Counted from the stretch's first letter, positions 9,836 through 35,557 are shown. The stretch is DNA of 64,000 nucleotides from an uncultured Dehalococcoidales bacterium (GCA_964586515.1 CAZPGJ010000001.1:158390-222389), one strand, 5' to 3'. Notes: generated from the letters alone by a model not told the origin. Made by a program: numbers and translations.

Positions 9836-11265
9836 ATAATGAAGCTATCTTTCTGCTTATCCGTGGCGGCCATATAATTGACCCCAGCCAGGGCATAGAC
9901 CAGGTTGGTGACTTGCTTATTGCTGAGGGCAAGGTTGTGCACTTGGGAGGCGAAATACCAACTGTCATTGCGAGTGACCTGCCCGCCTGCTCGCCGCACG
10001 ACTTCGGCAGGCGAGCCAAGGCTTGGCAGGCGGGAGCGAAGCAATCTCAAGCAATTGATGCCACTGGATTGATTGTCTGCCCCGGATTCGTAGACCTCCA
10101 CTGTCACCTCCGGGAGCCAGGTTTTGAGGATAAGGAAACAATCGCCACAGGGACAAAGGCAGCCGCCATAGGCGGCTTTGCCACTGTCTGCTGTATGCCG
10201 AATACCAATCCTCCCCTCGATAGCTCCTCTGTTCTAGACCTGGTGAAGAGAAATACGAGCAGGGAAAGCTTCATCACGGTTCTTCCCATAGGCTGCATTA
10301 GCAAAGGTAGGAAAGGCAAGGAATTGACCGATATGGCCAGGCTGGCAGAGGCCGGGGTGGTTGCTTTCAGCGACGATGGCGACCCAGTGAAAAGCTCACA
10401 GCTCCTGCGTCGTGCTATGGAACATAGCCGCGACCTGGGCCTGCCAATCATTGACCATTGCGAGGATAGAGCGCTGAGCGACAATGGAATCGTAAACGAA
10501 GGCCAGATATCTGCTAAGTTAGGTCTAAAAGGAATTCCTGCAGCCGCAGAAGAGGTCATTGTGGCGCGTGACTTGATTCTGGCAAAGTTGACCAGGGCCA
10601 GACTTCACATAGCCCATGTCAGCACCAGGGGCTCTGTAGAGCTTATTCGCCATGCCAAGGAAGAAGGGGGTTCAGTAACCGCTGAGGTTACACCCCACCA
10701 CCTGACTCTGACCGAGGACGCAATCACAGGCAGGTCTCACAATGACTCGCTTAATACTAACGCCAAGGTGAACCCACCTCTACGCACCAGCGAGGATATC
10801 GAAGCCTTAATCAGGGGACTCAATAACGGTGTAATCGATGCTATTGCCACCGACCACGCACCTCATACTCTGGCCGATAAAAATTGTGGGCCAGAGCTAG
10901 CCGCTTTTGGCATCAGCGGCTTTGAAACCGCTTTTGGCTGCCTCATGAGCCTGGTGCATGAAGGGAAAATAGACTTGACCATGCTGCTCTCCAAGCTCAC
11001 CTGTGAGCCAGCGAAAGTCATCAGTAGAAATGGTGAACTAGGCACCTTAAAGGCCGGCGCCCCGGCTAATATCAGCATACTCGACCCTGACCGGGAATGG
11101 ATAGTGGATAGCCGCAATTTTGCCTCTAAGGGCAAGAATACTCCTTACGATGGCTATAAGTTTAAGGGCAAGGTGATGGCAACCATAGCAAGCGGCAGGA
11201 TAGTTTACACTGATAACTCCCTTGTCATTGCGAGGAACAAAGTGACAAAGCAATCTCATGGCTAG
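9832..11265 (+). CDS. pyrC: Dihydroorotase carrying an in-frame ~85-bp palindromic repeat insertion near the N-terminus
   Basis: Amidohydrolase motifs (PGFVDLHCHLREPG, DHAPH). Residues ...VIASDLPACSPHDFGRRAKAWQAGAKQSQ... are encoded by the repeat at 9964-10048. Confidence 0.85.
   Translation: MNNEAIFLLIRGGHIIDPSQGIDQVGDLLIAEGKVVHLGGEIPTVIASDLPACSPHDFGRRAKAWQAGAKQSQAIDATGLIVCPGFVDLHCHLREPGFEDKETIATGTKAAAIGGFATVCCMPNTNPPLDSSSVLDLVKRNTSRESFITVLPIGCISKGRKGKELTDMARLAEAGVVAFSDDGDPVKSSQLLRRAMEHSRDLGLPIIDHCEDRALSDNGIVNEGQISAKLGLKGIPAAAEEVIVARDLILAKLTRARLHIAHVSTRGSVELIRHAKEEGGSVTAEVTPHHLTLTEDAITGRSHNDSLNTNAKVNPPLRTSEDIEALIRGLNNGVIDAIATDHAPHTLADKNCGPELAAFGISGFETAFGCLMSLVHEGKIDLTMLLSKLTCEPAKVISRNGELGTLKAGAPANISILDPDREWIVDSRNFASKGKNTPYDGYKFKGKVMATIASGRIVYTDNSLVIARNKVTKQSHG
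9964..10048 (+). repeat. Copy of the ~85-bp GC-rich structured repeat (GTCATTGCGAG...GCGAAGCAATCTC), in frame inside pyrC
   Basis: Near-identical to copies at 16497, 17207 and 26456 and to the inverted copy at ~34843. Internal complementary arms CCCGCCTGC/GCAGGCGGG and CTCGCC/GGCGAG. Confidence 0.85.
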
Positions 11266-12445
11266 GAAAGCGATTTTAGTCCTCGAAGATGGCTCGGTTT
11301 ACGAAGGCGAGGCCTTTGGCGCCAAGGCTACTACCTATGGTGAGGTAGTATTCAGCACGAGCATGACCGGCTACCAGGAGATGCTCACAGACCCTTCTTA
11401 TGCTGGTCAAATTCTAGTCCCCACCTATCCTTTAATTGGCAACTATGGCATCAACGAGTCCGATTTTGAATCTAAGCAAATTCAGGTCAGGGGCTTTGTT
11501 GTTCGAGAATATTGTCCTCGGCCCAGTCACTGGCAAAGCACCCGTACTTTGCACGAGTTTCTGTTGGCTTACGGCATTCCTGGCATCAGCGGCATAGATA
11601 CCCGTGCCTTAACTCGCCGCCTGAGGTCAAGCGGGGTGATGATGGGCATTCTCAGTTCAGAGATGACCATTGAAGAGGCATCGGCGGAGCTAAAAAGCTT
11701 ACCCAGATATGACTCTGTTAATTTTGTCCATCAGGTTAGCACTGAAAAATCATATGAGTGGCAATCCGGTATGCCTGTCACTGCGACCCCATCTTCCCTG
11801 TCATTGCCAGGAGCGTCAGCGGTTGCGAGGCGAAGCCGAAGCAAACTCGGCGAGATTCCTCGCTCACGCTCGGAACAGGCTCCGCAATCCCGTATAGTAG
11901 TTATCGACTACGGTCTGAAATACAACATACTGCGCATTTTGAGCCAGCTTGGCTGTCAGGCAACTGCTATCCCGTGCACTGCTTCAGCAAAAGATGTCCT
12001 AGCCTTAAATCCCGATGGTATTGTTCTCTCCCCTGGCCCTGGCGACCCTGCCCTCCTTGGTGACATAGCGGAGACGGTAAGAAATCTTATAGGTAAGAAG
12101 CCGATAATGGGCATATGCCTGGGGCATCAGCTTATAGGCAAGGCTTTAGGAGCACAGACATTCAAATTGAAGTTTGGACATCGTGGTGGTAACCATCCTG
12201 TGCGGGATTTGACTACCAGCAGAGTTTATATCACCGCTCAGAATCATGGCTATGCCCTGGATGCTGATACCTTGAAGGAAGGACTTGAGGTCAGCCACAT
12301 AAACCTGAACGATGGCACGGTGGAGGGGCTCCGCCACCGGGACTTGCCCATCCTATCCATTCAGTACCACTCCGAAGCTTCCCCCGGTCCCTGGGATAAT
12401 AAGTATCTATTTGAGAGATTTCTGGAGATGGTGGGGAGAACATGA
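11258..12445 (+). CDS. carA: Carbamoyl-phosphate synthase small (glutaminase) subunit, with a ~35-aa repeat-derived insertion in the interdomain linker
   Basis: N-terminal CPSase small-chain domain and class-I GATase triad region (GICLGHQ, HGYA). The linker PSSLSLPGASAVARRSRSKLGEIPRSRSEQAPQSR is encoded by degenerate repeat sequence. Confidence 0.85.
   Translation: MARKAILVLEDGSVYEGEAFGAKATTYGEVVFSTSMTGYQEMLTDPSYAGQILVPTYPLIGNYGINESDFESKQIQVRGFVVREYCPRPSHWQSTRTLHEFLLAYGIPGISGIDTRALTRRLRSSGVMMGILSSEMTIEEASAELKSLPRYDSVNFVHQVSTEKSYEWQSGMPVTATPSSLSLPGASAVARRSRSKLGEIPRSRSEQAPQSRIVVIDYGLKYNILRILSQLGCQATAIPCTASAKDVLALNPDGIVLSPGPGDPALLGDIAETVRNLIGKKPIMGICLGHQLIGKALGAQTFKLKFGHRGGNHPVRDLTTSRVYITAQNHGYALDADTLKEGLEVSHINLNDGTVEGLRHRDLPILSIQYHSEASPGPWDNKYLFERFLEMVGRT
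11776..11870 (+). repeat. Degenerate/composite copy of the GTCATTGCGAG...GAAGCAATCTC repeat family (GTCACTGCGACC...GTCATTGCCAGG...CGAAGCAAACTC...GAGATTCCTCGCTC), in frame inside carA
   Basis: Terminal motifs of the family are recognisable with mismatches; the interior has diverged. Confidence 0.5.
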
Positions 12446-12735
12446 AAAATCCAGAGGTATTTATTAACATTTTAAAAGAGAATTGGCTTCACGCCCGGCA
12501 CATAGAGATTGTGAGGATGCTGTTTGCCAACATATATGCAGCAATTATTGCTGGGGTGTTAGCTTATCTAGGTAAATCGGGATTACATATTATGCCTCTC
12601 GCTGCTCTTCTTGTGATATCAATATTTTGGCTTTGTTTTACATTAAAACAAAATGCTGAATTTGCCAATCACATGAAATCAATCGAAAATATTTTTAACG
12701 ATGGGAAAATATCTCTGGGAGAGCAAAATGAGTGA
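12442..12735 (+). CDS. Hypothetical small membrane protein (97 aa, two predicted TM helices) between carA and carB
   Basis: ORF overlaps the carA stop (ATGA). Hydrophobic segments IYAAIIAGVLAYLG and LAALLVISIFWLCF. Low-GC segment. No recognisable family. Confidence 0.35.
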   Translation: MKNPEVFINILKENWLHARHIEIVRMLFANIYAAIIAGVLAYLGKSGLHIMPLAALLVISIFWLCFTLKQNAEFANHMKSIENIFNDGKISLGEQNE

Positions 12736-12913
12736 AGAAAATATGTTGGCATGCCTCTCTCAGCCAAAGGGGGAATATGGAGGATACTCAGAGTAAGCAC
12801 CATATTTGTCGTTTTTTATGTGGCGGTTATTATAACACTCGTTTCACTGATAATTTATGTTTTGGTGCGTTAGTTAAGTGAAGAAATACCCAGAATTCCC
12901 TATAAGAAACAAA

Positions 12914-15900
12914 ATGTCCAAAATATCTAAAGTCTTAGTCATTGGCTCGGGGCCGATAATCATCGGACAGGCGGCGGAGTTCGATTATTCCGGGACTCAG
13001 GCATGCCGAGCACTGAGAGAAGAGGGCGTGACCACGGTCCTGGTGAACTCGAACCCGGCCACCATCATGACGGACGAGGGCATTGCTGATATCGTTTATA
13101 TCGAGCCGCTCACGGTGGAAGTCCTGGCTCGCATAATTGAAAGAGAGCGTCCCGATGGCTTATTGCCTACACTGGGTGGGCAAACAGGGCTCAATTTGGC
13201 GGTGGAGTTAGCCGATGCCGGCGTACTCGACAAGTATCATGTGCGGTCTCTGGGCACACCTATAGAAACGATAAAGAAGGCTGAAGAAAGGTCTTTGTTC
13301 AAGCAGCTTCTTCTTGATATTGGCGAGCCTGTGCCTCCAAGCAAAACTGTAAAATCGGTGGAAGAAGCAAAAGAACTGGCAAGGTCCATAGGTTTGCCTC
13401 TCATTGTCCGCCCTTCCTATACTCTGGGAGGCACTGGCGGCGGCATCACTTACACTATGAAAGAGCTCGAACAGACCGTTGCTAATGGTCTGGATTCCAG
13501 CATGAGCCACGAGGTTCTGGTGGAGCAATGTGTTTTAGGTTGGAAGGAAATTGAATTTGAAGTCATGCGAGATGCTGCCGACAACTGCATCGCTGTCTGT
13601 ATCATGGAGAACATTGACCCCATGGGCGTTCATACCGGGGATAGTATCGTAGTAGCCCCCAGCCAAACTCTCACCGACAAAGAATACCAGATGCTCAGGT
13701 CGGCCAGTTTAAAAATCATAAGGGCGCTGAAAATCGAGGGTGGCTGCAATATACAGTTCGCCCTTACTCCACATCCCATAGTTGCGGAAAAATGGGCTCC
13801 GGACCAGAAGGGAGTCACAAGAAGCCAATATCACGTAATTGAAGTTAACCCTCGTGTCAGCCGTAGTTCGGCTTTAGCCAGTAAAGCCACGGGCTATCCT
13901 ATTGCCCGGGTCGCTGCCAAAATAGCCATAGGCAAGAGACTCGATGAAATCCCCAATAGGGTCACAGGCAAAACACTGGCGTCTTTCGAGCCAGCTCTGG
14001 ATTACTGCGTAGTCAAGATTCCCAGATGGCCCTTCGATAAATTTGCTTTGGGTGACCGAAAAATTGGCAGTCAGATGAAAGCCACTGGTGAGGTAATGGC
14101 CATTGACAGGTGTTTTGAGGCTGCTCTGCAAAAGGCAGTGCGCTCCCTGGAATTCGGCAAACGCACCCTGCTCTGGGAAGACCTCAGTTGGAGTAGAGGG
14201 GAGGGGCTTAATTCCTATCCGCTTTACCCTAACGACTTAAGACTATGGGCGATCATGGCAGCGCTGCGAAGGGAGGCCAGGCCCGAAGAGCTCTCACAGG
14301 TCACCGGCATAGACCCCTGGTTTATTTATAAGTTCCAGAATATTGTGGACATGGAGAGGAGGCTTCTTTCCGAACCGTTGACACCGGAGCTTTTATGGGA
14401 GGCGAAGAGGCTGGGCTTTTCCGATGAGCAAGTAAGCACTTTGGCCGATAGGTTGCCAGAGCAGGTAAGACAGGCTCGCCATCAATGGAAAATTTGTCCG
14501 GTGTACAAGATGGTGGATACCTGTGCCGCCGAATTTGATGCTGAGACCCCTTATTTCTACAGCACTTATGAAAGAGAAAACGAAGCTGATTCCCTGGCAG
14601 AGAAGAAAGCTGTGGTTATCGGCAGCGGGCCGATACGCATCGGGCAGGGAATTGAGTTCGACTATTGCTGCGTTCATTCAGCCTGGGCGCTTCAAGAGAT
14701 AGGCATAAAGAGCATCTTGGTCAATTCTAATCCCGAGACAGTTTCCACTGATTTTGACACCAGTACTCGCCTCTATTTCGAAGCATTGGACGAGGAAAGC
14801 ATCCGAAATATACTTCAGAATGAGAGTAACAACGGTTCTGCTCCACCATCCATCGTCCAGCTTGGTGGACAAACACCTATTAATTTGGTTGGAGTCTTAG
14901 CTCGCAACAATTTGCCGATACTTGGCTCGAGCGCCGAAGCTATAGACATAGCTGAAGACCGCCGTCGCTTTGAAGATTTCCTGGACAGACTAGGTATTCC
15001 TCAGCCGCCAGGGGCTGGAGTAACATCCATTGAAGCGGCATTAAATGTAGCCAAGTCCTTAGGTTATCCTGTGTTAGTGCGCCCTAGCTATGTCCTGGGG
15101 GGCCGGGCTATGGAAATCGTGTATAACGAGCCTGAGTTAATCCGCTACCTGACATTAGCTCTGGAGATGGATAGCCAGCATCCTGTGCTTATTGATAAAT
15201 ACTTCCAGGGTAAAGAAGTCGAGGTAGATGCCATTTGCGATGGCGAAAAGGTTCTTATTCCTGGCGTGATGGAGCATATTGAAAGAGCTGGCGTACATAG
15301 CGGTGATGCCTTGGCTATCTACCCGGGAATCAACCTGACTCCGGAAGAAGTAGATACTATGGTGGATTACACCATGAGGATTGGACCGGCCCTGGGAATT
15401 AAAGGGTTGATGAACGTTCAGATGGTAATAATGAGGGACCCAGCACTCAACTCGTTGAGTGCTGGGCGCTCAACGGTATATGTTTTTGAGGTAAATCCCC
15501 GCGCCAGCCGAACCGTACCTTTTATCTCCAAGGTAACTGGCGTGCCCATGGTAAGAATTGCCACTAAGGTCATGGCTGGGATTAGCCTCAAGGAGCAAGG
15601 CTATGAAGGCGGGTTATGGAAGAGACAAAAGTTGGTAGGTATAAAGGCTCCCGTTTTTTCTATGTCAAAATTGACTGGAGTAGATAGCTACCTCGGTCCT
15701 GAGATGAAATCCACAGGCGAGGTTATGGGGATTGATTACAGCTTTGAGGCGGCCCTGGTTAAGGCCCTTTTAGCTGCTGGATTGATGCTGCCTCAAGGAG
15801 GTAGTCTGCTACTTAGCATTGCCGACAAGGATAAAACTGAAGCCGAGCCTCTGATTAAGCAATTGCATTCCCTGCGCCACGAGCTCTACGCCACGGAGGG

Positions 15901-16213
15901 GACCGCAGCGATGATTGAATCTATGGGGTTCCCGGTAAAAATGGTGACCAAGAAGCTAAGCGAAGGACATCCTAACGTTGTTGATGTTATTCAAGATAAT
16001 TCTGTGAGCGGAGTGATTAATACTATCACTGGAGGGCGCATTCCGCTAAAAGACGGCTTAGATATCAGGCGCGCCGCGGCAGAAAAGAGGATACCATGCT
16101 TCACCTCATTAGATACTGCTCGGGTAGCTATAGGAGCATTAGTAAATAGTAGACAAATCTTTAACGTTCAACCACTCAGGGAGTACTTAAGAAAATCAAA
16201 AGGCAAAAGTTAA
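12914..16213 (+). CDS. carB: Carbamoyl-phosphate synthase large subunit, carrying an in-frame 30-nt palindrome insertion
   Basis: ORF 12878..16213; conserved start [20 protein letters not shown] at 12914. Two ATP-grasp halves and an MGS-like C-terminus. Residues [10 protein letters not shown] are encoded by the palindrome at 15439-15466. Confidence 0.9.
15439..15466 (+). repeat. Copy 2 of the CCCAGCACTCA palindrome family (CCCAGCACTCAA-ctcg-TTGAGTGCTGGG), in frame inside carB
   Basis: 28-bp near-perfect palindrome. The G>A change on the left arm is compensated by C>T on the right arm relative to copies 1 and 3. Confidence 0.7.
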
Positions 16214-16316
16214 AAATCAAAATTACAATTCAAAATGGAAAAATGCTTCGTTTTTGATTTTTGCTCTGTCATTTTGCTTTTTTATCTTTAAATTTTGATA
16301 TTGTTTAGGTTTTAGC
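16214..16316 (+). repeat. AT-rich intergenic repeat (family with ttttgatttttg / gtcattttg / caaaatg motifs) between carB and pyrK
   Basis: Shares motifs with the spacers at 32584, 45087, 45636, 47752 and 50380. Confidence 0.45.
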
Positions 16317-17195
16317 ATGAAACAAACCTTGTGCTCCGTAACCTCTAATGTGGAAGTCATGCCCGGCATACACCTCATGTGGATTGAGGCACCAGATATA
16401 GCAGTGACGGCTCAGCCGGGGCAATTCATCACAGTGCGGTGTGGAAGTTTTACATTGCGCCGCCCTTTCAGCGTCCACCAAGTTGGGAGTAATAATGTCA
16501 TTGCGAGCGACCTGCCCGCCTGCTCGCCGTACGACTTCGGCAGGCGAGCCAAGGCTTGGCAGGCGGGAGCGAAGCAATCTCAAGTTGCCCTTCTGTTCAA
16601 GGTAACAGGCAAAGGTACCCTCTGGCTGTCGCAGCGACAAATAGGTGAGAGGATAGACATTCTTGGCCCCTTGGGTAAGGGGTTTAGTATCGAACCAAAA
16701 TCTAAACATTTGCTGCTGGTGGCTGGGGGAATTGGCATTGCTCCGCTTGTTTTCTTGATGCAGCATGCTTCATCTCAGCACCAGATAACTTTAATTCACG
16801 GGGCGAGCACTGCTGCTCAACTCTATACCGAGCGCTGTCAGCTAACAGCCATCAGCTATCAGGGAGTTCAATTTATTCCTGTCACCGAAGATGGCACCAT
16901 GGGCCAAAAAGGCATGGCCACGGATATCCTGCCTGATTTCCTAGACTGGGCTGACCAGGTGTATGCCTGCGGGCCTGTAGACATGTACAAGGCAATGGCG
17001 GAGATGTCATTGCGAGCGGAGCGAAGCAATCTCAAACTGAAGAAATGTCAGGTTTCCCTTGAGGTGCGGATGGGGTGTGGTTTTGGAGCTTGCTACGGCT
17101 GCACTGTAAATACCAAGAAAGGCTTAGAACGCATATGCCGTGATGGACCTGTATTTGAGTTGGACGATATCATATGGCAGGAGATAAAGATATGA
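16317..17195 (+). CDS. pyrK: Dihydroorotate dehydrogenase electron-transfer subunit PyrK (FAD/NAD-binding, 2Fe-2S), with two in-frame repeat insertions
   Basis: Ferredoxin-reductase fold motifs (RRPFSV, GGIGIAP) and a C-terminal Cys cluster CGFGACYGC. Repeat copies at 16497-16581 and 17006-17033 are translated in frame. Confidence 0.8.
   Translation: MKQTLCSVTSNVEVMPGIHLMWIEAPDIAVTAQPGQFITVRCGSFTLRRPFSVHQVGSNNVIASDLPACSPYDFGRRAKAWQAGAKQSQVALLFKVTGKGTLWLSQRQIGERIDILGPLGKGFSIEPKSKHLLLVAGGIGIAPLVFLMQHASSQHQITLIHGASTAAQLYTERCQLTAISYQGVQFIPVTEDGTMGQKGMATDILPDFLDWADQVYACGPVDMYKAMAEMSLRAERSNLKLKKCQVSLEVRMGCGFGACYGCTVNTKKGLERICRDGPVFELDDIIWQEIKI
16497..16581 (+). repeat. Full-length copy of the ~85-bp structured repeat, in frame in pyrK
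   Basis: GTCATTGCGAGCGACCTGCCCGCCTGCTCGCCGTACGACTTCGGCAGGCGAGCCAAGGCTTGGCAGGCGGGAGCGAAGCAATCTC. Confidence 0.85.
17006..17033 (+). repeat. Minimal 28-bp copy holding only the two terminal motifs (GTCATTGCGAGCGGAGCGAAGCAATCTC), in frame in pyrK
   Basis: Termini of the family abut with the interior deleted. Confidence 0.6.
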
Positions 17196-17206
17196 CCACC
17201 CACTCC

Positions 17207-17291
17207 GTCATTGCGAGCGACCTGCGCGCCTGCTCGCCGTACGACTTCGGCAGGCGAGCCAAGGCTTGGCAGGCGGGAGCGAAGCAATCTC
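17207..17291 (+). repeat. Full-length copy of the ~85-bp structured repeat, intergenic (12 nt after the pyrK stop)
   Basis: One mismatch (CCTGCGCGCC) relative to the consensus. Confidence 0.85.
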
Positions 17292-17310
17292 TTTGGAAGG
17301 AGGTAAGAAT

Positions 17311-17730
17311 ATGACCGTGGTAACCAAGGATATCACCCTTCAATCAAGAGGTAATTGTGACATCATCGATATAACCTCTCAGGTGGCCAAGAATGTCGAG
17401 AAATCTGGGGTTAATAGTGGAATAGTCACCCTGCTTATAGTCGGTTCAACAGCGGGAATAACCACCATAGAGTATGAGCCAAATCTACTTTCCGATTTCA
17501 AGAATATGTGGGATAGGGTGATACCCCAGAATATTCCTTACGAGCATAATAAAACCTGGGGGGATGGGAATGGCCATTCCCACGTGCGTGCTTCCACGCT
17601 CGGAGCTTCACTAATAATACCTTTTGTGAATAAGAGGTTAACTCTGGGCACCTGGCAGCAGATAATTTTCGTAGATTTCGATAATCGTCCCAGGTCCAGA
17701 AAGATTGTTATTCAGATATTGGGCGAGTAA
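17311..17730 (+). CDS. YjbQ/UPF0047-family protein (secondary thiamine-phosphate synthase-like)
   Basis: ORF 17266..17730; likely start ATG 17311 after GGAAGGAGGT. Family pattern visible (ITLQSRGNCDIIDIT...GIVTLLIVGSTAGITT...HSHVRAS). Confidence 0.6.
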   Translation: MTVVTKDITLQSRGNCDIIDITSQVAKNVEKSGVNSGIVTLLIVGSTAGITTIEYEPNLLSDFKNMWDRVIPQNIPYEHNKTWGDGNGHSHVRASTLGASLIIPFVNKRLTLGTWQQIIFVDFDNRPRSRKIVIQILGE

Positions 17731-20422: not shown

Positions 20423-20428
20423 CTATAC

Positions 20429-22957: not shown

Positions 22958-23218
22958 ATGCCAAGGTACACTCGAGCTCCTGCTTTAAGTGGCAAGCAAT
23001 TAATCAGACTATTACGGAAAGATGAGTGGATACTCAAAGGACGAACCAGGCATGGTGTGGCATTGGCAAAGCATTTTGGAGACCGCACCAAAGTTACAGT
23101 AATACCGGATACCAACGCATCACTCGATGATGGCACACTAGCCGCAATATTAGGTGTCAAACAGACAGGTATCGGCAAGAAGGGCTTACTCGATTTACTT
23201 AATAAGTTTGGATTATAG
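22958..23218 (+). CDS. hicA: HicA-family (YcfA-like) mRNA-interferase toxin
   Basis: 86 aa; the C-terminal pattern VTVIPDTNASLDDGTLAAILGVKQTGI matches HicA (..vP.H....l..GTl..Ilkqagl). Confidence 0.55.
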   Translation: MPRYTRAPALSGKQLIRLLRKDEWILKGRTRHGVALAKHFGDRTKVTVIPDTNASLDDGTLAAILGVKQTGIGKKGLLDLLNKFGL

Positions 23219-23220
23219 CA

Positions 23221-23553
23221 TCATGCAGCACTGGCTTTGGAGAGCCGCTGCACATGCGGTTCGACAAAAGTACTTGTTCTGGGTGATACGCAAACTGTAA
23301 TATTCTTCCTGGGTCTAGTACGATGAAATTCTATATTATTCTCCCTGAAAAACCGTTGCCGTTCTCCCACATCCTCAAGAGTGTTTAGATGAAGCAATAC
23401 AGCTTCCTTAATCCTTTTGTCTGCTTCTGGTAGAGAGCGACCGAAGGTTGCTGTACCAAGCTCTTTGCAATATGCAGTCCACCGCCTACCGACTCTGCGG
23501 AATTCGAGCGTCAAAACTACATATCCTGGAACCCCCACAATTCCCTCCTTCAT
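23221..23553 (-). CDS. hicB: HicB-family antitoxin (N-terminal RNase-H-like/UPF0150 domain); convergent with hicA
   Basis: GYVVLTLEFRRVGRRWTAYCKELGTATFGRSLPEADKRIKEAVLLHL matches the HicB N-domain pattern. Confidence 0.55.
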   Translation of the reverse strand: MKEGIVGVPGYVVLTLEFRRVGRRWTAYCKELGTATFGRSLPEADKRIKEAVLLHLNTLEDVGERQRFFRENNIEFHRTRPRKNITVCVSPRTSTFVEPHVQRLSKASAA

Positions 23554-24057
23554 TGTTTATTCAGGCAATTAAGACCCTTGCGTAGCAATCTGTACATCAA
23601 TATAATAGCATTTGTCAATATTTACGGCAAATTATTACTTGTCTTTAAGGGGTAGTTGCAGAATGATATATAAAAATAGCTCCCGGTGGTAGGACCCCAC
23701 GCCTGTACAGACGCTGCCATCTTCAGCAGATGACCAACCATTCCCCAGGAGCTTTTCTTACTACTATCAAAATTATAGTAAAATGTTATAGTATTGTCAA
23801 TATTTGATTGGCATTTGCAACGAGGTGGGGTTATGGATAAATTGAAAACCAATGTTTTGTATTATGGCTACAAGGTGATTCACGGGAACACCATGGTGTT
23901 TATCGTGAACAGTATGAAAACAAGTTTAAGGAGTATAAGTGAATAGTCATCTCATAGAAATCCTTGAGGACGAAGAACTCAAAGCTAGAATACAGAGGAA
24001 ATTGCCCTACTTATTTAACATTGCTGAGCTAGAAAGCTCCCGAGCAGGAAAAATTGG

Positions 24058-24570
24058 ATGCAGGTGGGCTCGCTTAGGGAAAACGTTATAATAGCTCTAC
24101 TTATATATAAATTCGGAGAACAAAACGTAGAAACCGAGATTCCCATTACCGAGCCAGAAGTTGATGTCAGATTATTTGGTCAACCCGTGTCTATCAAGAC
24201 AATTACAGGTAAAAGGTTTAGTGGAGTTAAGATTATATGGACAGTTGATGCTCAGAAAGCACGGCAATTTCGACAGAGCTACTATCCTCGATGTGATACT
24301 TTATTCGTGCAGGTTAATTGGGGTGGTAAGGGCGGACTTTACTACTTACCATTAGAGGTTCAAACAAAGGTATTTAATGCAATAGGCAGAGCAGCGTATA
24401 TTAAACTTCCTAAGCCAGGGACAAATCCGAGAGGCGTGGAAATCACTAACGAGGCGTTAGAGGCTGTAGTTACCGATAAAGAGTCCAAAGCTATTGAGAT
24501 ACGTTGGCAAAGAACAGAAATAGACTATGATCCATACCAGAGATGGGTTGACCACTGGAGGGAGGAATGA
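24058..24570 (+). CDS. Hypothetical protein, candidate small type II restriction endonuclease; possibly frame-disrupted at the 5' end
   Basis: 170-aa ORF overlapping the downstream methyltransferase start by 4 nt (ATGA). A further ~40-codon open frame (VNSHLIEILEDEELKARIQRKLPYLFNIAELESSRAGKIG) runs into its start in another frame. No confidently recognisable catalytic motif. Confidence 0.35.
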   Translation: MQVGSLRENVIIALLIYKFGEQNVETEIPITEPEVDVRLFGQPVSIKTITGKRFSGVKIIWTVDAQKARQFRQSYYPRCDTLFVQVNWGGKGGLYYLPLEVQTKVFNAIGRAAYIKLPKPGTNPRGVEITNEALEAVVTDKESKAIEIRWQRTEIDYDPYQRWVDHWREE

Positions 24571-25595
24571 AGATGAAAAGAGGGACTAAGACAAGTTCAT
24601 TTGGTTCGCCAGGGCGCATAAACCACGATTCCACTCGCTTCTACGCCAGCAGACTCTATGAAAGTCTGCCTAAAGAAGAAAAAGGCGCATATGTAGAAAA
24701 TCCTATTCCTCCCGAATTCCTTGATAAAGTATTCTGTAAATCAAGCGAAAAGATGGCGGAATTACCTGACAATAGTGTTCACATAATGGTAACTTCTCCA
24801 CCCTACAACGTAGGCAAACAGTATGATGAGGATTTGACGCTCGAAGGATACAAAGAGTTTCTAAAAAGGGTATGGCAAGAAGTCTACAGAGTGCTTGTGC
24901 CCGGTGGCAGAGCTTGTATAAATATCGCCAACCTCGGGAGAAAACCATATATTCCACTCCACGCTTTTGTCGTTGAAGATATGCTTGAGTTAGGCTTTCT
25001 TATGCGAGGAGAGATTATCTGGAACAAGGCTTCAAGCTCTAGCCCCTCCATGGCTTGGGGAAGCTGGCTTTCTGCGGCTAACCCAACACTGAGAGATATT
25101 CACGAATATATATTAGTTTTTTCTAAAGGAACTTTTGCTCGAAAGAAACAGCCGAATAGAAATAGCACTATATCTAGAGAAGAATTTCTTGAATTAACCA
25201 AGAGTGTGTGGACATTCCCTGCAGAGCAGGCAAAGAGTATCGGGCATCCCGCGCCTTTCCCCGTGGAGTTACCATATAGGCTCATCCAACTCTATACTTA
25301 CGAGGGAGATGTTGTCTTGGACCCCTTTATGGGAAGCGGGCAAGCAGCTATAGCCGCGATAAAAACGAGACGACACTATATAGGCTATGATATAAATGAG
25401 GAATATGTTAAGCTGGCAGAGAGACGAATTAGAAGATTTAGCTATGTCCAAGATGTTCCTGCAATGTTTGATTTCATAGTCAAAGAGAACAGAGCAGACA
25501 TAGCTATAGAGGAAGAGTCAGAAGGCGAAAAACAGGGGAAGGCGAACTATGAAATCAGCCGTAAAAGAGCTGGAAGAGAAGGGAAAGGCAGCTAA
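24567..25595 (+). CDS. DNA methyltransferase, beta-class N4-cytosine/N6-adenine family (TSPPY motif IV preceding DPFMGSGQAA motif I); likely m4C
   Basis: Motif order IV then I with SPPY and FxGxG, typical of the PF01555 N4/N6 methyltransferases. Confidence 0.8.
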   Translation: MKMKRGTKTSSFGSPGRINHDSTRFYASRLYESLPKEEKGAYVENPIPPEFLDKVFCKSSEKMAELPDNSVHIMVTSPPYNVGKQYDEDLTLEGYKEFLKRVWQEVYRVLVPGGRACINIANLGRKPYIPLHAFVVEDMLELGFLMRGEIIWNKASSSSPSMAWGSWLSAANPTLRDIHEYILVFSKGTFARKKQPNRNSTISREEFLELTKSVWTFPAEQAKSIGHPAPFPVELPYRLIQLYTYEGDVVLDPFMGSGQAAIAAIKTRRHYIGYDINEEYVKLAERRIRRFSYVQDVPAMFDFIVKENRADIAIEEESEGEKQGKANYEISRKRAGREGKGS

Positions 25596-26907
25596 GGCAG
25601 CTTCGAGAAAGCTGGCGTTCCTTTCTACGGAAGTTAAGAATAAGGCTTTGGTCAATATCGCTGAGGCTCTTATCGCTAGAAAGGACGAAATCTTAGCTGC
25701 CAACAAGATTGATTACGAGGAGGCGAAGGCTTCAGGGATGAATGAAGCCATGCTGGACAGGCTTATGCTGTCGCCATCTCGCCTGGAAGGCATAGCCCAG
25801 GATACAAGAACAGTGGCGGCGCTGCCTGACCCGGTAGGCGAGGTGTTCGAGATGCGGACCTTGCCCAATGGTTTACAGATAAGCAAGAGGCGAGTCCCCC
25901 TGGGAGTCATTGGTGCGATATATGAGAGCCGCCCCAATGTCACCATAGACATATCGAGCCTGTGCCTTAAATCAGGCAACGCCGTCATCCTCCGTGGTGG
26001 CAAGGAAACCATAAATTCGAACAAGGCCTTAGCCAGGGTAGCTCAAGAAGCCTGTGACCAGGCCGGCGTGCCCCAGGGAGCCATCCAGCTTATCGAGTCC
26101 ACAGAACGGACTTTAGTCAATCACATGCTCAAGATGAAGGGAATAATTGACTTGATGATTCCCCGCGGCGGCGCTGGTTTGATAAAGCTTGTCTCGGAGA
26201 ATGCCGCTATGCCGGTAATTACCGGCGGCATCGGTGTCTGCCATACCTATGTGGACAAGAGTGCCGACGTGAACAAAGCGGTTGCCATCGCCTATAATGC
26301 CAAAGTCCAGCGCCCTACCGTGTGCAATGCTCTCGATTGCATTCTGGTCCATAATCAGATTGCTCAAGCTTACCTGCCGGCTATCGCCAAAGAGTGGGCC
26401 AAGGCCGGCGTGGAAATGCACTGCGACAAGCGAGCCTTGGCTATACTTAAGCAATGTCATTGCGAGCGACCTGCCCGCCTGCTCGCCGTACAACTTCGGC
26501 AGGCGAGCCAAGGCTTGGCAGGCGGGAGCGAAGCAACCTCCCCACCCTTAAAGCTAGTCCCGGCCACAGATGAGGACTGGGGGAAGGAATATCTATCCTT
26601 GAAAGCGGCTATTAAAGTGCTTGACTCTCTGGACGAAGCTCTGGAGCACATTGAGAAATATGGCTCGGGGCACTCCGAAGCTATCGTTACCGAAGACCAT
26701 TCGGCAGCAATGCGCTTCCTCAACGAAGTGGATGCCGCCTGTGTTTATGCCAATGCCAGCACTCGGTTCACCGACGGGGGGCAGTTTGGATTAGGCGCTG
26801 AGATAGGCATAAGCACGCAGAAATTTCACGCCCGCGGTCCCATGGCATTGAAAGAGCTAACCAGTTACAAGTGGATTATCGTGGGCAGCGGGCAAGTTCG
26901 GCCTTAG
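25549..26907 (+). CDS. proA: Gamma-glutamyl phosphate reductase with an in-frame ~85-bp repeat insertion
   Basis: Aldehyde-dehydrogenase-fold ProA motifs throughout. Residues CERPARLLAVQLRQASQGLAGGSEATS are encoded by the repeat at 26456-26540. Confidence 0.85.
   Translation: MKSAVKELEEKGKAAKAASRKLAFLSTEVKNKALVNIAEALIARKDEILAANKIDYEEAKASGMNEAMLDRLMLSPSRLEGIAQDTRTVAALPDPVGEVFEMRTLPNGLQISKRRVPLGVIGAIYESRPNVTIDISSLCLKSGNAVILRGGKETINSNKALARVAQEACDQAGVPQGAIQLIESTERTLVNHMLKMKGIIDLMIPRGGAGLIKLVSENAAMPVITGGIGVCHTYVDKSADVNKAVAIAYNAKVQRPTVCNALDCILVHNQIAQAYLPAIAKEWAKAGVEMHCDKRALAILKQCHCERPARLLAVQLRQASQGLAGGSEATSPPLKLVPATDEDWGKEYLSLKAAIKVLDSLDEALEHIEKYGSGHSEAIVTEDHSAAMRFLNEVDAACVYANASTRFTDGGQFGLGAEIGISTQKFHARGPMALKELTSYKWIIVGSGQVRP
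26456..26540 (+). repeat. Full-length copy of the ~85-bp structured repeat, in frame in proA (a different reading frame from the pyrC/pyrK copies)
   Basis: Two substitutions (GTACAACTTCGG, GCAACCTC) relative to the consensus. Confidence 0.85.
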
Positions 26908-29113: not shown

Positions 29114-29204
29114 TTTCTCAGCCTCCTAATTTGAGTCTTAAGCCCTTGTTCAAAAGGGGCGATTGTCCACTCGTCTATTATAACACACGCTAGTTAGAAG
29201 TATT

Positions 29205-29245: not shown

Positions 29246-29250
29246 ACAGC

Positions 29251-29865: not shown

Positions 29866-29911
29866 CCTTGTTTTCCCTAGCTCCGATTATAGCACAATGG
29901 CGGAGGGAGCA

Positions 29912-29950
29912 CCTGTCCAGGGTAGGGGAAAATCCGAACCTGTGTTGACT
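29912..29950. repeat. Conserved ~30-nt motif copy C (TAGGGGAAAATCCGAACCTGTGT), 3' of the 238-aa hypothetical gene
   Basis: Third copy of the motif; more diverged in its 3' half. Confidence 0.5.
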
Positions 29951-29971
29951 TGCAATTTATCGTCACCACTT

Positions 29972-30688: not shown

Positions 30689-30804
30689 TCTAGTATAAAT
30701 CCTTAACCCATAAGCTCAGGTGATTCTGTATATATCTAGTTCTGAGATGCCATAATCGCTTCCCAAGCATGATTTGAGATTAGTTTCATATTCAATATCT
30801 TTCC

Positions 30805-31395: not shown

Positions 31396-31428
31396 ATTTA
31401 ACCCCCAATATTTTATTTCACCCTCACC

Positions 31429-32583: not shown

Positions 32584-32667
32584 TTCAACCTAAACTAAAA
32601 GTCAAAAATTAAAAATCAAAATGACAAATTAAAATGTAAATATTTTTGCCTTTTGCATTTTAATCTT
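32584..32667 (+). repeat. AT-rich intergenic repeat (aaagtcaaaaat / aaaatcaaaatgacaaa / ttgcatttt) between hisC and hisD, inside the his operon
   Basis: Shares motifs with the other AT-rich spacers (16214, 45087, 45636, 47752, 50380). Confidence 0.45.
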
Positions 32668-34068
32668 TTATTTAGCCCTCATCCTTCTTTCTACTGCCTG
32701 GGCGTGGGCATCGAGCCCTTCAGCTTCAGCTATTACCACAGCAGCCCGACTCAGCTTTCGCATGGCAGCCTTGTCCAGGGCGATGATATTGGTAACCTTG
32801 AGAAAGTCGGCAACGCCCAGAGGAGAACCGAAACGAGCACTGCCTCCGGTGGGCAAGACATGGCTGGGACCGGCAACATAATCACCGAGAACGACAGGCG
32901 AGTTCTCGCCTATGAAAATACAGCCGGCATTGTGAATTTTGGGGACTAAAGACGAAGCGTTAGATGTCATAAGAGAGAGGTGTTCCGGAGCGAAGAGGTT
33001 GACCAATTCCACTGCCTGGGCTATGTCATCTACAAGCACAAGCATCCCCCTATCAATAGCTGCTCTGGCAGTAGAACGCCGCTTTAATTTCCCCAGTTGC
33101 ATCTCGATTGCCTTATTTACCTGGTCAGCCAGGTCAGCCGAAGTGGTGATTAAAATTACTGAAGCCAGGGGGTCATGTTCAGCCTGGGCCAGGAGGTCAG
33201 CGGCACAAAGTGCGGGGTTGGCTTTCTCGTCGGCGACAATTACTACCTCGCTGGGGCCCTCGAGACCATCGAGGTCCACTGTGCCATAAACCATTTTCTT
33301 AACCAGGGTCACGAAGATGTTCCCGGGGCCACAAATCTTATCCACTCTAGGTATTGACTCAGTACCATAAGCTAATGCCGCAATAGCCTGAGCGCCGCCA
33401 ATTTTAAAAATGCGGTTGACCTTAGCAATATCGGCGGCGACCAACGTGGGTGCAGGAATCCACCCACCCTTAGCAGGCGGCGAAACCATAATGATTTCCT
33501 TAACACCGGCCACTTTGGCTGGTATGGCCATCATCAGCACTGTGGATGGATAGGCAGCGGTGCCGCCGGGCACATACAGGCCAACCTTTTGTAAGGGCCG
33601 AACCTGTTGCTTAAGGTGCTTGGCGATAGGAATCAGGCCGGTTTTGTGTCCACAGGCAACATGGAAGTCCCGGATTCTTCTGGCTGCGAACTCGAGGGCC
33701 GAGATAAGTTTCTTGTCTGTTATATCGTAAGCGGCCACAACTTCCTGTCTATTTACTTCCAGGGAATCCAACCGCGCTCCATCCAGTTTTTCGGTGTAAT
33801 CAAAGAGGGCTTTATCGCCTTTATCCCGAACTTCGCCGATAATACGGTCGACCACTTCTTGAACTGAAAGCTCTCCGCCAAAGACTTGCTTTATTTGAGC
33901 TCGTAGTCTCGGTGAGGTGTTGAAAGACTCCCAGAAGTTTTCCCTGGCCAGTAATTGTTTCGCTTTGTTAAATCCTTCGACTCTTTTCACAATAATCCTA
34001 CCCGTGGCGGGGATTGCTTCGTCACTTTGTTCCTCGCAATGACGAGGGGAAAAGGCTCGCAATGACAA
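32668..34068 (-). CDS. hisD: Histidinol dehydrogenase. The annotated N-terminal ~20 codons are encoded by GTCATTGCGAG-family repeat sequence, so the true start may be downstream.
   Basis: HisD motifs throughout (zinc/NAD-binding regions, e.g. AEHDPLASVILITTS and HLSLMT). The first 60 nt (ATGTCATTGCGAGCC...GTCATTGCGAGGAACAAAGTGACGAAGCAATCC) are repeat sequence. Confidence 0.8.
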   Translation of the reverse strand: MSLRAFSPRHCEEQSDEAIPATGRIIVKRVEGFNKAKQLLARENFWESFNTSPRLRAQIKQVFGGELSVQEVVDRIIGEVRDKGDKALFDYTEKLDGARLDSLEVNRQEVVAAYDITDKKLISALEFAARRIRDFHVACGHKTGLIPIAKHLKQQVRPLQKVGLYVPGGTAAYPSTVLMMAIPAKVAGVKEIIMVSPPAKGGWIPAPTLVAADIAKVNRIFKIGGAQAIAALAYGTESIPRVDKICGPGNIFVTLVKKMVYGTVDLDGLEGPSEVVIVADEKANPALCAADLLAQAEHDPLASVILITTSADLADQVNKAIEMQLGKLKRRSTARAAIDRGMLVLVDDIAQAVELVNLFAPEHLSLMTSNASSLVPKIHNAGCIFIGENSPVVLGDYVAGPSHVLPTGGSARFGSPLGVADFLKVTNIIALDKAAMRKLSRAAVVIAEAEGLDAHAQAVERRMRAK

Positions 34069-34070
34069 AA
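34012..34070 (-). repeat. Cluster of GTCATTGCGAG / GAAGCAATC motifs (two tandem terminal motifs) at the hisD 5' end
   Basis: Plus strand reads GATTGCTTCGTCACTTTGTTCCTCGCAATGACGAGGGGAAAAGGCTCGCAATGAC. Confidence 0.6.
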
Positions 34071-34081
34071 AAGAAGACTTG

Positions 34082-35557
34082 TCATGATAGCCCCGCTCGC
34101 AATTTCTGTGTCAGAAACTTCATTTTCTCTTTTTTATCGGAAGATGCCAGACTATTTTTGCTGGCAATCAGACATGCCGAAGATTGGAAGAGCACATCAA
34201 TAATCTTCAATTTGTGCTGTTTGAGAGTCTTCCCTGTCTGGACATTGTCAATAAGCATGTCGGCATCCTCTGGTAAAAAAGCCTCGCTCGCCCCCCAGGT
34301 TGGGATTAGCTTGTAGGGGTTAATGTGATTGTCCCGAAGATACCTGTCGGCAATATTTATGTACTCCGAAGCTACTTTTAGAGGAGCAAACTTGCCGCTC
34401 TGAACAAGCGACCGCAATTCATCAACGTCGGCCGCAGGCATTTCCTGGCTCACGGCAGCGACAATTTTGACGGTGCCAAAGCCGAGAGCAAACAATTTCT
34501 TCACCGGGCTCGAGGGGAAGCGATAGAGGTGTTCCCGCAGCCAATCCTCACCGGTTATGGCTAAGTCGAAATTGCTATTAGCCACTTGCAGAGGCATATC
34601 CTGGGGCCTGATTACTTTAATGCCCAGCCAGTCTAAATCAGCGGAGGGCCGGCGGCTCACTACTTCTTCAGAATAGCCCTGAAGTGCCAGCCCGGCTTGC
34701 TTCAAAAACTGCGCAGCAGGTGCTTGCTGGTGCCCATCAGGCAAAGCCAGGTTGATTTCTTTGGCTGGCCACGAGGAGCGAGGAATCTTTAGTTTCTTAC
34801 AGATATCAAGCTCATGTTCTATTGGTGTCTGTGGCCCCGCCTGCCAAGCCTCGGCTCGCCTGCCGAAGTCGTACGGCGAGCAGGCGGGCAGGTCAGCGCT
34901 AAGCTGGGAGTCAAAACACACCAATATCTGGCTCAAATCCTTGTTCTCCAGGCTTTCTCGATTGGCTATTACAAAGGCCGTAACGGGGAGTATCTTTTCG
35001 AGGGGAATTAAACCTTGAGCTGCTATATGCGCTCCGCTCTTTCCCCAGAGCACCGCCAAATCGGCATTTTCCGGGGGATAAGCCTCAGTAGCTCCCCACA
35101 CCGGGAAAATCCTGAACCTTTTCATCCTGAGATTTAAGGCAAAAGCCTCAGCCAGATTAGGATACTCACTCACTATACGATAGCTTCTGCGGGCTGATAA
35201 CTCATTGAGACTGGTTATCCCAGCTTGAGCACTGGCAACCACGTGTATACCACCTTCGCCGTAATTTAGACTCGCTATTTTTACCAGGGCCCCAGCGGGA
35301 TATTTCACCAGAAATTCTTCAATCCAATCCAATCCACAAATTCCCAGGTCATAATTCCCGACAGCCACCTGGATGGGAATATCTTTTTCCTGAAGTATTT
35401 TGGCGGAAAGACTGGGAAACCTTGCCGAGCGCAGGCGATATTGCTTTGTTTTATCGCCATAACCATCAAATCCCACGTCTATCTGGGCAAGCAAGCTAGC
35501 TGTCGGCGATAGAAACCTGCCTTTAGGGAGAGCGAGTTTAATAGATTGATATTTCAT
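34082..35557 (-). CDS. hisG: ATP phosphoribosyltransferase, tandemly duplicated HisG-like protein (two HisG-type halves, 491 aa) with an in-frame repeat insertion between the halves
   Basis: The first half (LALPKGRFL...VAVGNYDLGICGLDW) and second half (INLALPDGHQQ...VANSNFDLAITGEDW) both match HisG. Residues ADLPACSPYDFGRRAEAWQAG come from the inverted repeat copy at ~34843-34904. Confidence 0.7.
   Translation of the reverse strand: MKYQSIKLALPKGRFLSPTASLLAQIDVGFDGYGDKTKQYRLRSARFPSLSAKILQEKDIPIQVAVGNYDLGICGLDWIEEFLVKYPAGALVKIASLNYGEGGIHVVASAQAGITSLNELSARRSYRIVSEYPNLAEAFALNLRMKRFRIFPVWGATEAYPPENADLAVLWGKSGAHIAAQGLIPLEKILPVTAFVIANRESLENKDLSQILVCFDSQLSADLPACSPYDFGRRAEAWQAGPQTPIEHELDICKKLKIPRSSWPAKEINLALPDGHQQAPAAQFLKQAGLALQGYSEEVVSRRPSADLDWLGIKVIRPQDMPLQVANSNFDLAITGEDWLREHLYRFPSSPVKKLFALGFGTVKIVAAVSQEMPAADVDELRSLVQSGKFAPLKVASEYINIADRYLRDNHINPYKLIPTWGASEAFLPEDADMLIDNVQTGKTLKQHKLKIIDVLFQSSACLIASKNSLASSDKKEKMKFLTQKLRAGLS
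34843..34904 (-). repeat. Core of the ~85-bp structured repeat in inverted orientation (termini degenerated), in frame in hisG
   Basis: Plus strand reads CCCGCCTGCCAAGCCTCGGCTCGCCTGCCGAAGTCGTACGGCGAGCAGGCGGGCAGGTC, the reverse complement of the repeat core. Confidence 0.75.

Follow-up and report, generated by a model that had tools for sequence, protein, structure and literature searches.

The stretch analysed here (the window: 64,000 nt from an uncultured Dehalococcoidales bacterium) carries a repeat of about 85 bp inside the reading frames of several housekeeping genes. A first-pass annotation had described this repeat as a single element inserted as a unit. Instead, the 85-mer is a nested composite of three modules, a shell (M1) that holds a second module (M2), which in turn holds a third (M3), and relatives carry M1, M1+M2 and M1+M2+M3 at the same sites. 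According to these data, the modules are probably nested, non-autonomous mobile repeats of the repetitive extragenic palindromic (REP) type, translated in frame within their host enzymes.

Copies were located by matching of the 85-mer, with a repeat finder and against shuffled-sequence controls, and the host genes were assigned by comparison with Pfam and the Protein Data Bank (PDB). Four copies with 0-2 mismatches are present in pyrC, in pyrK, after pyrK and in proA, where the first annotation had placed them (Table 1), and none is expected in shuffled sequences. The repeat finder returned the same four and a 59-60-nt inverted match at 34836-34895, in hisG. This last copy is indeed inverted and lies between the two HisG-like halves, but it extends over 34836-34892 rather than ~34843-34904, and it comprises only the inner 57 nt without the ends GTCATTGCGAG and GCGAAGCAATCTC, that is, M2+M3 without the shell. 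Together with a flanking T and A, a long copy measures 87 nt, or 29 codons, close to the 28 added residues first proposed for every copy, while the hisG piece adds 19 codons. The host open reading frames (ORFs) run uninterrupted through every copy, in agreement with the earlier description. The number of copies had been underestimated, since additional inserts occur at the 3' end of pyrC, in carA and in carB; in-frame palindromic inserts are found in six window genes, namely pyrC (twice), carA, carB, pyrK (twice), proA and hisG.

The insert points, for which loops or linkers had been proposed, coincide with gaps or variable segments in the alignments to solved homologues. Residues 39-70 of the PyrC query stand against seven residues in Aquifex dihydroorotase, the extra ones lying between Aquifex residues 35 and 43. 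Relative to L. lactis PyrK, the window protein has extra residues at 55-80 (between L. lactis residues 58 and 60) and about seven more near 231-240, and ProA has exactly 29 additional residues between residues 295 and 296 of 8zok. The hisG insert occupies the linker joining the two halves. AlphaFold2 models of ProA (30 sequences, mean pLDDT 49) and PyrK (69 sequences, mean pLDDT 40) were unusable, the alignments being too shallow. The hisG ORF is itself a tandem fusion of two HisG-like halves, with PDB alignments covering residues 3-114 and 267-475; its relatives (476-503 aa) have the same organization, and a separate HisZ-like gene is located nearby (Table 1).

The composite structure can be recognized within the window, where the 30-nt unit at the second pyrK site corresponds to the two ends of the 85-mer joined together, and other units have the same ends around different interiors (Table 1). 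M1 is a shell of ~27-30 nt, (C/T)GTCATTGCGAGCGA|AGCGAAGCAATCTC, i.e. (C/T)GTC-ATTGC-GAGCGA|AGCGAA-GCAAT-CTC, with a 5-bp terminal stem and a 12-nt GA-rich interior that contains two overlapping GCGAAGC motifs. This motif is said, from work by Hirao and colleagues, to be a very stable DNA mini-hairpin. M2 (27 nt, CCTGCCCGCCAAGGCTTGGCAGGCGGG) is found in the M1 loop at GCGA^AGC, between GCGAGCGA and AGCGAAGC, so that its insertion point falls inside a GCGAAGC motif. M3 (30 nt, CTGCTCGCCGTACGACTTCGGCAGGCGAGC) lies within M2 at CCCGC^CAAGG (GC^CAAG), with an ambiguity for target duplication of at most 2 nt, and its variation among the window copies lies in the apical loop, G(T/C)AC(G/A)ACTTCGG. 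In a second arrangement (type 2), carried in proA by two of the compared loci (L014 and L031; L numbers denote such loci and contigs), M3 is found at CCTGC^CAAGC, the mirror site on the opposite strand of the M2 palindrome GCCAAG-G-CTTGGC, in reversed orientation, and M2 is unchanged. An inversion between the M2 arms was considered as a way of turning type 1 into type 2 and discarded, as neither arm pair yields the observed sequence. The modules are independent of each other: M2+M3 is found in ATTGC shells, in ATTCT shells, in a GTAG-type hairpin (L013 and L015), in another repeat and bare in hisG, and an M3-like 30-mer is present inside the unrelated 'SPLTGEDSGEG' element of the L035 PyrK.

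Comparison with relatives provides a natural series of alleles. For ProA, 120 homologues 85-94% identical to the window protein were used (BLASTP, insert region included), the boundaries being fixed on the DNA of representatives, and the syntenic relatives are at about 85-92% DNA identity to the window. The ProA site is empty in proteins of 424 aa (ILK-PIP-SLKLVPA), and it contains M1 in those of 433 aa (QCHCERSEATSP), M1+M2 in those of 442 aa (QCHCERPARQGLAGGSEATSP) and M1+M2+M3 in those of 452 aa, as type 1 in the window (QCHCERPARLLAVQLRQASQGLAGGSEATSP) and as type 2 in others (QCHCERPARQGLARLPESYGEQAGGSEATSP). In the DNA, L028 is empty, L029 has M1 and L030 has M1+M2, and they differ from the complete window allele by exactly 84, 57 and 30 nt. 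Other forms at this site are an ATTCT-type shell (430 aa), another repeat family (435 aa) and an insert of 110-145 residues (P0061, 535 aa; P0064, 568 aa; at the position of window 26452-26541), for which no Pfam match was found. A nested descent of the ProA lengths, suggested by decreasing identity (442 > 433 > 424), was dropped because identity is inflated by the insert and the states are scattered once it is masked.

An equivalent series is seen at the first pyrK site, where the peptide changes among 120 homologues from SSRE to VIASEAKQSQ, to VIASDLPAKAWQAGAKQSQ and to the window form, and where the DNA is empty in L032, has M1 in L033 and M1+M2 in L034, and carries M1+M2+M3 in the window; the 'SPLTGEDSGEG' element also occurs at this site, with or without the M3-like 30-mer. 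At the first pyrC site all four relatives have a shell, which contains M1+M2 in L033 and is of the ATTCT type with other contents in L032, L034 and L035. The carA site is occupied in relatives by a shorter shell-like segment (LRGASA..TKQS) or by another family (GEG). The M1 shells at pyrK site 1 and in proA are common to the window and its relatives, and the near-identity of the 85-mers is due to the inner modules. The M1 at the second pyrK site is old: most of the 120 PyrK homologues have it, and amino-acid changes break its palindrome. Insert-free orthologues of ProA, PyrK and hisG exist, and the insertions are lineage-specific, as had been proposed. Many other small intergenic repeats of the window are also present or absent relative to these relatives. 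A third variable site was noticed in PyrK at residues ~170-190 (nt ~16830-16890), where the window has YTERCQLTAISYQ and many relatives have YPFSSAAKKRSKLSPLP; the homologue P0235 has a clear shell peptide, SLRAKRSKL, at this position.

With regard to gain and loss, L029 and L030 have hisG genes from which precisely the 57 nt of M2+M3 are missing, with the sequence GCTGA^GCC. No base can be slid at either junction, and there is thus no target duplication; M2 in proA is likewise inserted without a duplicated base. When hisG sequences were joined in a neighbour-joining tree after masking of the insert, both empty alleles were nested among ten filled genomes, and the most distant genome, L003, is filled. 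All hisG copies have the variant CCGAGG, as opposed to CCAAGG in the other copies of the same metagenome-assembled genomes (MAGs), and therefore form one lineage. The simplest reading of this pattern would be at least two scarless losses, or allele replacement. Slippage between direct repeats was rejected as a cause of scarless loss, given that the empty shell has AGCGA|AGCGA in full and that no repeat flanks the insert in hisG. On a shorter time scale, two proA contigs from sibling ENA samples (L036 and L038, assemblies ERZ27247971 and ERZ27247973) are 99.9% identical, with 14 substitutions in 11.5 kb, and their single indel is the 27-nt M2.

The hisG insert has only 2 variable sites out of 57 in the eight full-length filled genomes, compared to 29.6% in the rest of the gene, and a single variable third codon position out of 19, compared to 50.8% elsewhere (Fisher test, 6e-5). 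Among all 57-nt segments of the gene it shows the highest conservation, in the middle of a linker that is the most variable part of hisG. Such conservation of silent sites cannot be explained by selection at the protein level, and the retention of CCGAGG does not sit well with conversion from other copies. We infer that this unusually conserved hisG copy may have come to function as a structure in DNA or RNA. The old M1 of pyrK, by contrast, decays freely. The complete 87-mer folds into one long imperfect nested hairpin (-42 kcal/mol), as the first-pass annotation had predicted. In the shells, an ATTGC head is paired with a GCAAT tail in 66 cases against 1, and ATTCT with AGAAT in 13 against 0 (Fisher test, 4e-14, many of these copies being orthologous and the events not independent). 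These two compensated base pairs between shell subtypes are evidence that pairing matters. When inserts were removed in silico, M1 and the GTAG-type hairpin had the insertion point at the hairpin apex, and the 'GEG' element had it at the loop edge.

The lengths of the copies taken together fall in all residue classes modulo 3, and an intrinsic 3n length of the family was rejected, since the lengths of 80 shells are not periodic. Nevertheless, all genic copies and all intermediates have lengths divisible by three and contain no stop in the host frame. Three sense frames are in use, VIAS... in pyrC and pyrK, CHCER... in proA and SLRAERSNL in the shell-only pyrK copy, with predicted peptides across the inserts such as NNVIASDLPACSPYDFGR and QCHCERPAR. 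Moreover, the old M1 copies of pyrK site 2 evolve as an in-frame peptide in over 100 homologues. Translation is favoured for these three reasons, and the inserts are likely to be translated as loop insertions. All nine M1-type copies inside or abutting ORFs of the window are in sense orientation; this can be attributed in part to stops in two of the three antisense frames, in the form of TGA at the shell ends.

Other explanations must be taken into account. It is scarcely credible that the segments are ancestral or artefacts of assembly, and no supporting points were found: they are absent from solved homologues and from many close relatives, the same DNA also occurs between genes, and independent NCBI, JGI and ENA assemblies agree on the filled sites, the stems of 5-9 bp being far below assembler k-mer sizes. 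The elements could also be left untranslated, by intron-like removal from the mRNA or by ribosome skipping as in the yeast mitochondrial 'byp' elements, so that the enzymes would be unaltered. The nucleotide-level conservation of the hisG copy could be understood in this way, the nesting is reminiscent of twintrons, and scarless loss is the expected product of a reverse-transcribed spliced mRNA. However, neither the frame-keeping restricted to genic copies nor the drift of old copies as protein agrees with this, the flanks have no conserved 'exon' motifs, and no ribozyme or intron family matched units of this size (27-87 nt), which makes it very improbable. A further alternative, which we regard as rather unlikely, is that M2+M3 is a functional nucleic-acid element selected in place, for instance an mRNA stabiliser or processing site, an inter-domain translational pause or a protein-binding DNA site, the peptide being a by-product. 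Besides the conservation of the hisG insert, it would account for the uniform sense orientation and for the intergenic copy 12 nt past the pyrK stop, a REP-like placement. On the other hand, two lineages have lost the hisG copy precisely with the gene intact, presence and absence differ between near-identical strains, old M1 copies decay freely and part of the sense bias is expected from the antisense stops; no copy of the element matched an Rfam family, either at gathering or at E<=5, and the variation in M2/M3 is too low for covariation.

The spread of the modules by recombination or gene conversion, with fragile hairpins breaking, as loops are cut and forks stall, and being repaired from another shell copy in the genome or from the allele of a related strain, would turn short copies into longer ones or the reverse and make both nested insertion and scarless loss a matter of conversion. 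We consider this unlikely, but several observations count for it or against the mobile, translated repeats that we favour. In pyrC, pyrK and proA, M2 and M3 all lie within pre-existing M1 or M1+M2 shells, which would give flanking homology; M3 was seen only in M2 and in one other hairpin, as gene conversion between related copies would also produce. In a masked ProA protein tree the insert states are uncoupled from the tree, with 30 Fitch steps for 75 carriers, and the nearest neighbour of the window ProA is an empty allele; in hisG, too, empty alleles are nested among filled ones. Two linked single-nucleotide polymorphisms lie 28-33 nt upstream of the M2 indel between L036 and L038, so that this pair may owe its difference to recombination and not to a new movement of M2. 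Allele exchange without new transposition could in fact explain much of the pattern. To this must be added that the edges of M1 are fuzzy, the host codons beside the insert differing between empty and filled alleles, and that the element at the pyrK/yjbQ junction is flanked by a duplication of ~22 nt, unlike the scarless M2+M3. Loop targeting is not universal, as the hisG insert is one base 3' of a weak hairpin and that of L002 is in a stem, and the folding z-score of the 87-mer against shuffles is only -2.6, a modest value explained by its GC-rich sequence. The window has housekeeping genes, a restriction-modification pair and a HicA-like ORF, and no mobilising enzyme was found in it or in the annotated loci, nor a Y1 transposase domain in the ORFs scanned; support for translation, for its part, comes from sequence patterns. 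Recombination, however, cannot account for the arrival of M2+M3 in hisG or of M3 in the 'SPLT..GEG' element, neither of which offers flanking homology, and the homology arms for M3 in M2 would be only 9-17 nt long. Furthermore, CCGAGG in hisG has not been overwritten by the CCAAGG copies of the same genomes, and the flanks of the hisG insert differ up to its junctions, which excludes the transfer of long tracts.

If nested mobile repeats are indeed the explanation, modules would be copied as DNA into new places, frequently into or beside the loop of a hairpin already in place, with no target duplication, with the M1 shell serving as a landing pad for two smaller hairpin modules, which could vanish again without a scar. 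Survivors within genes would be those with a length divisible by three, no stop in the host frame and a position in a tolerant loop or linker; they would be transcribed and translated as 9-29 extra residues, and old ones would drift as ordinary protein sequence. Movement may proceed as single-stranded hairpin DNA with an enzyme acting in trans, for which an IS200/IS605- or RAYT-like HUH transposase would be the obvious candidate, although none was found; we propose this single-strand, hairpin-loop route only tentatively. Similarly, it is possible, though we lean against it, that M2 and M3 are mobile in their own right, homing to hairpin apices that include GCGA^AGC of the widespread CGTC-type shell, with no target duplication and with scarless excision, that essential enzymes thereby gain and lose blocks of 9-10 residues on the time scale of strain divergence, and that at least the hisG copy was recruited as a conserved structure of DNA or RNA. 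If this were true, M2 (27 nt) and M3 (30 nt) would be among the smallest mobile units known.

Among known systems, the likeness that the first-pass annotation had drawn was to Rickettsia palindromic elements (RPEs), reportedly described by Ogata et al. in 2000 and summarised in PMC10969869 and PMC3733652. The behaviour does correspond: palindromic, lineage-specific inserts occur in frame in housekeeping genes of unrelated function that have insert-free orthologues, they encode short peptides at positions that appear to be tolerated, they are also intergenic, and no transposase of their own was found in the window or annotated loci. The differences are that RPE-1 consists of single units of ~100-150 bp, whereas here units of 27-30 nt are stacked; that the host belongs to the Chloroflexota (Dehalococcoidia) and comes from free-living sediment populations instead of being an obligate intracellular alphaproteobacterium; and that empty and intermediate alleles still segregate among close relatives. 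Nesting of tiny hairpin repeats at fixed junctions, as M2 in M1 and M3 in M2, recalls in behaviour the small dispersed repeats (SDRs) of Nostoc and relatives, which are said (Elhai et al. 2008, Genome Res 18:1484, listed among the references of PMC4390886) to be of 21-27 nt, hairpin-forming and nested at precise positions, an RNA intermediate having been proposed. SDRs are cyanobacterial and of other sequences, and systematic occupation of housekeeping enzymes in frame is not their hallmark. Fungal mitochondria have GC clusters, double-hairpin elements and 'byp', short GC-rich hairpins in protein-coding genes that are optional between strains; these are organellar, and byp is skipped by the ribosome and need not hold the frame, which here is always kept.

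The dependence on hairpins, the lack of target duplication, the scarless loss and the orientation bias are shared with REP/REPIN-RAYT systems and with the 'peel and paste' movement of IS200/IS605, and a GTAG-type hairpin hosts M2+M3 in L013 and L015. However, M1-M3 have no GTAG head, neither RAYT nor TnpA was found in the ORFs scanned, and no fixed sequence of four or five nucleotides serves as target. Identification as RAYT-mobilised REPs or REPINs was therefore discarded, on the missing GTAG head and Y1 domain. An identity as miniature inverted-repeat transposable elements, with terminal inverted repeats and target-site duplication, was also rejected, because the M2+M3 junctions are unduplicated and only the pyrK/yjbQ copy of M1 has a flanking duplication, and so was that of a self-splicing intron, ribozyme or known structured RNA, considering the size of the units and the lack of Rfam matches.

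The closest published class is that of CGTC-tagged REPs, which have a CGTC, TGTC or CCTC head, a stem starting with AT and a CCA tail, no dedicated transposase and some intragenic members (Di Nocera, De Gregorio and Rocco 2013, PMC3733652). M1 resembles them in its CGTC or TGTC head (Table 1; mostly C+GTC in 116 IMG/VR matches), in its AT-starting stem (ATT.../...AAT, five contiguous pairs, ATTGC/GCAAT or ATTCT/AGAAT, around an interior of 12 nt or nested hairpins) and in its unpaired tail, which is CCA(G) in IMG/VR, where AATC-CAG is the commonest 3' context of the 26-mer given below, and CTC(A) or CCC in the window copies. Like them, it occurs singly or as inverted pairs and can be intragenic; no transposase gene was found with it in the window or annotated loci. 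The published families have stems of 8-9 bp and loops of 4-5 nt (PMC3733652), unlike the 5-bp stem and 12-nt interior with two GCGAAGC of M1. The class includes Rickettsia RPE-4 and RPE-6 and Neisseria dRS3, and it is known from five phyla, Chloroflexi not among them (PMC3733652); nested cargo modules like those of the window repeat have not been described for it. Given these features of the shell, the earlier description of the genome as unrelated does not wholly stand with regard to the Rickettsia case. In a 2024 review, RPEs still appear as the most extreme example of integration in frame (PMC10969869). On sequence features, the window elements would best be filed with REP/RPE-type intragenic palindromic repeats, as a CGTC-like shell carrying two smaller modules.

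The M1 shell is far more widespread than the lineage of the window. Its exact 26-mer consensus, GTCATTGCGAGCGAAGCGAAGCAATC, was matched 116 times in 105 viral or proviral IMG/VR contigs (L044-L148) from many unrelated metagenomes, mostly in the context C-GTC...AATC-CAG, and about one quarter of these copies are deep inside long ORFs. Scans with the innermost hairpin gave 8 loci in a collection of one genome per species, all of them Dehalococcoidia MAGs, and 19 loci in JGI metagenomes. Proteins from other metagenomes also carry the long form in frame, namely one HypF-like protein, two of the TilS type and one peptidase. A search of a representative protein library with the 34-aa insert peptide gave five weak matches, few because clustering at 50% hides insert-bearing members, and a six-frame peptide search gave six matches at the database-wide E-value. 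Searching the literature with GTCATTGCGAG and its reverse complement returned only primers, and no description was found there of stacked 27-30-nt modules in housekeeping genes or of this phenomenon in Dehalococcoidia.

Table 1. Repeat copies, host genes and neighbouring features, in positions of the 64-kb window
Feature	Position	Strand	Remarks
pyrC ORF	9832-11265		dihydroorotase
Composite M1+M2+M3 in pyrC	9963-10049	+	85-mer match 9964-10048; TGTC head; 87 nt, 29 codons, codons 44-73, frame VIASDLPACSPHDFGRRAKAWQAGAKQSQ; M2+M3 core 9978-10034
M1 variant GTCATTGCGAG-GAACAAAGTGAC-AAAGCAATCTC	11223-11258	+	85-mer ends, other interior; TGTC head; last ~13 codons of pyrC ORF; abuts carA ATG
Degenerate M1-type composite in carA	11799-11891	+	in frame (LSLPGASAVARRSRSKLGEIPRSRSEQAPQS)
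30-nt perfect palindrome of a different family, ACCCAGCACTCA..TGAGTGCTGGG / CCCAGCACTCA...TGAGTGCTGGG	15438-15467	+	in frame in carB; +7 aa vs four relatives
Further copies of the carB-type palindrome family	7686-7715; 43250-43279
pyrK ORF	16317-17195
Composite M1+M2+M3, pyrK site 1	16496-16582	+	85-mer match 16497-16581; TGTC head; codons 60-89; M2+M3 core 16511-16567; M3 16520-16549
M1 shell alone, pyrK site 2	17005-17034	+	TGTC head; 30 nt, 10 codons, MSLRAERSNLK, sequence TGTCATTGCGAGCGGAGCGAAGCAATCTCA
Composite M1+M2+M3, intergenic between pyrK and YjbQ/UPF0047 gene	17206-17292	+	85-mer match 17207-17291; CGTC head; flanked by ~22-nt duplication
proA ORF	25549-26907		glutamate-5-semialdehyde dehydrogenase
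Composite M1+M2+M3, type 1, in proA	26455-26541	+	85-mer match 26456-26540; TGTC head; codons 303-331, frame CHCERPARLLAVQLRQASQGLAGGSEATS; M2+M3 core 26470-26526
hisG ORF	34082-35557	-	491 aa
M2+M3 without shell, hisG linker	34836-34892	-	57 nt, 19 codons, DLPACSPYDFGRRAEAWQAG; diagnostic variant CCGAGG
M1 variant and adjacent M1 5' half, hisG/hisD junction	34010-34067	-	85-mer ends, other interior; CGTC head at 34043; same variant as 11223-11258 (37 nt, 95% complementary)
Intergenic inverted pair of M1-type units	40372-40457	.	85-mer ends, different inner hairpins; one long hairpin, -42 kcal/mol, z = -5.3
Intergenic M1-type units	47996-48116	-	85-mer ends, other inner hairpins
Intergenic cluster of M1-type units	49990-50354	.	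85-mer ends, other interiors; ATTGC and ATTCT stems, both orientations; within spurious 175-aa ORF
Aspartate carbamoyltransferase ORF	8432-9835	+	467 aa
PyrR binding-site RNA	7748-7860	+	53.0 bits
proB-proA island	22958-25595		2.6 kb
DUF3800-VII RNA	23670-23756	-	RF02967, 48.5 bits
ThaI-like restriction endonuclease	24058-24570
N4/N6 DNA methylase	24567-25595
HisZ-like gene	36489-37727	-
NfeD-like gene	37838-39154
AT-rich intergenic repeat family (AAATCAAAAGGCAAAAGTTAAAAATCAAAAT...)	16193-16277; 32592-32676; 45133-45212; 50401-50462		both orientations
Intergenic repeat of ~90-105 nt	42748-42836; 44254-44342		two copies, 75% alike
Extra segments of relatives	37937; 39163		27 nt; 22 nt

The junction between pyrK and the next gene (window 17150-17330, compared with L032-L035) has ~22 nt of the ribosome-binding-site/overlap segment (GGCAGGAGGTAAGAATATGACC) on both sides of the M1-type element. 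In L032 this junction is an undisrupted overlapping ATGA, and in L033 it contains two elements, with the segment present three times. No Pfam match was found for the spurious ORF around the 49990-50354 cluster.

Other features of the window are listed in Table 1. The aspartate carbamoyltransferase ORF ends with a PyrI_C zinc domain and is thus a PyrB-PyrI fusion, with the same 467-aa form in L032, L034 and L035, and directly upstream of the pyr operon there is a PyrR binding-site RNA with a score just below the Rfam gathering threshold of 54. An island between proB and proA, missing from several relatives, contains a HicA-like ORF, a DUF3800-VII RNA, the ThaI-like endonuclease and the methylase; in L033 this position is occupied by a DUF3800 protein and a methylase. 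The AT-rich repeat family is present or absent relative to syntenic relatives, and each of the two copies of the ~90-105-nt repeat is missing from one of them (L019 and L009). Relatives also have two non-palindromic extra segments, one close to the 5' end of the NfeD-like gene and the other immediately beyond its 3' end.

Palindromic repeats inserted in frame are usually seen as a curiosity of Rickettsia, old and fixed, and here the process would have been caught under way in free-living Dehalococcoidia. Empty, one-, two- and three-module alleles that coexist at the same codon give exact module boundaries and target sites. They make up a natural series for the study of the movement of tiny hairpin repeats, of the tolerance of proteins to stepwise loop growth and of an intragenic copy more conserved than its host enzyme. 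Moreover, the repeat peptides (VIAS..KQSQ, SLR..RSNL and CHCE..EA(I/T)S) will recur in metagenomic protein sets, where they can distort alignments, clustering and domain calls.

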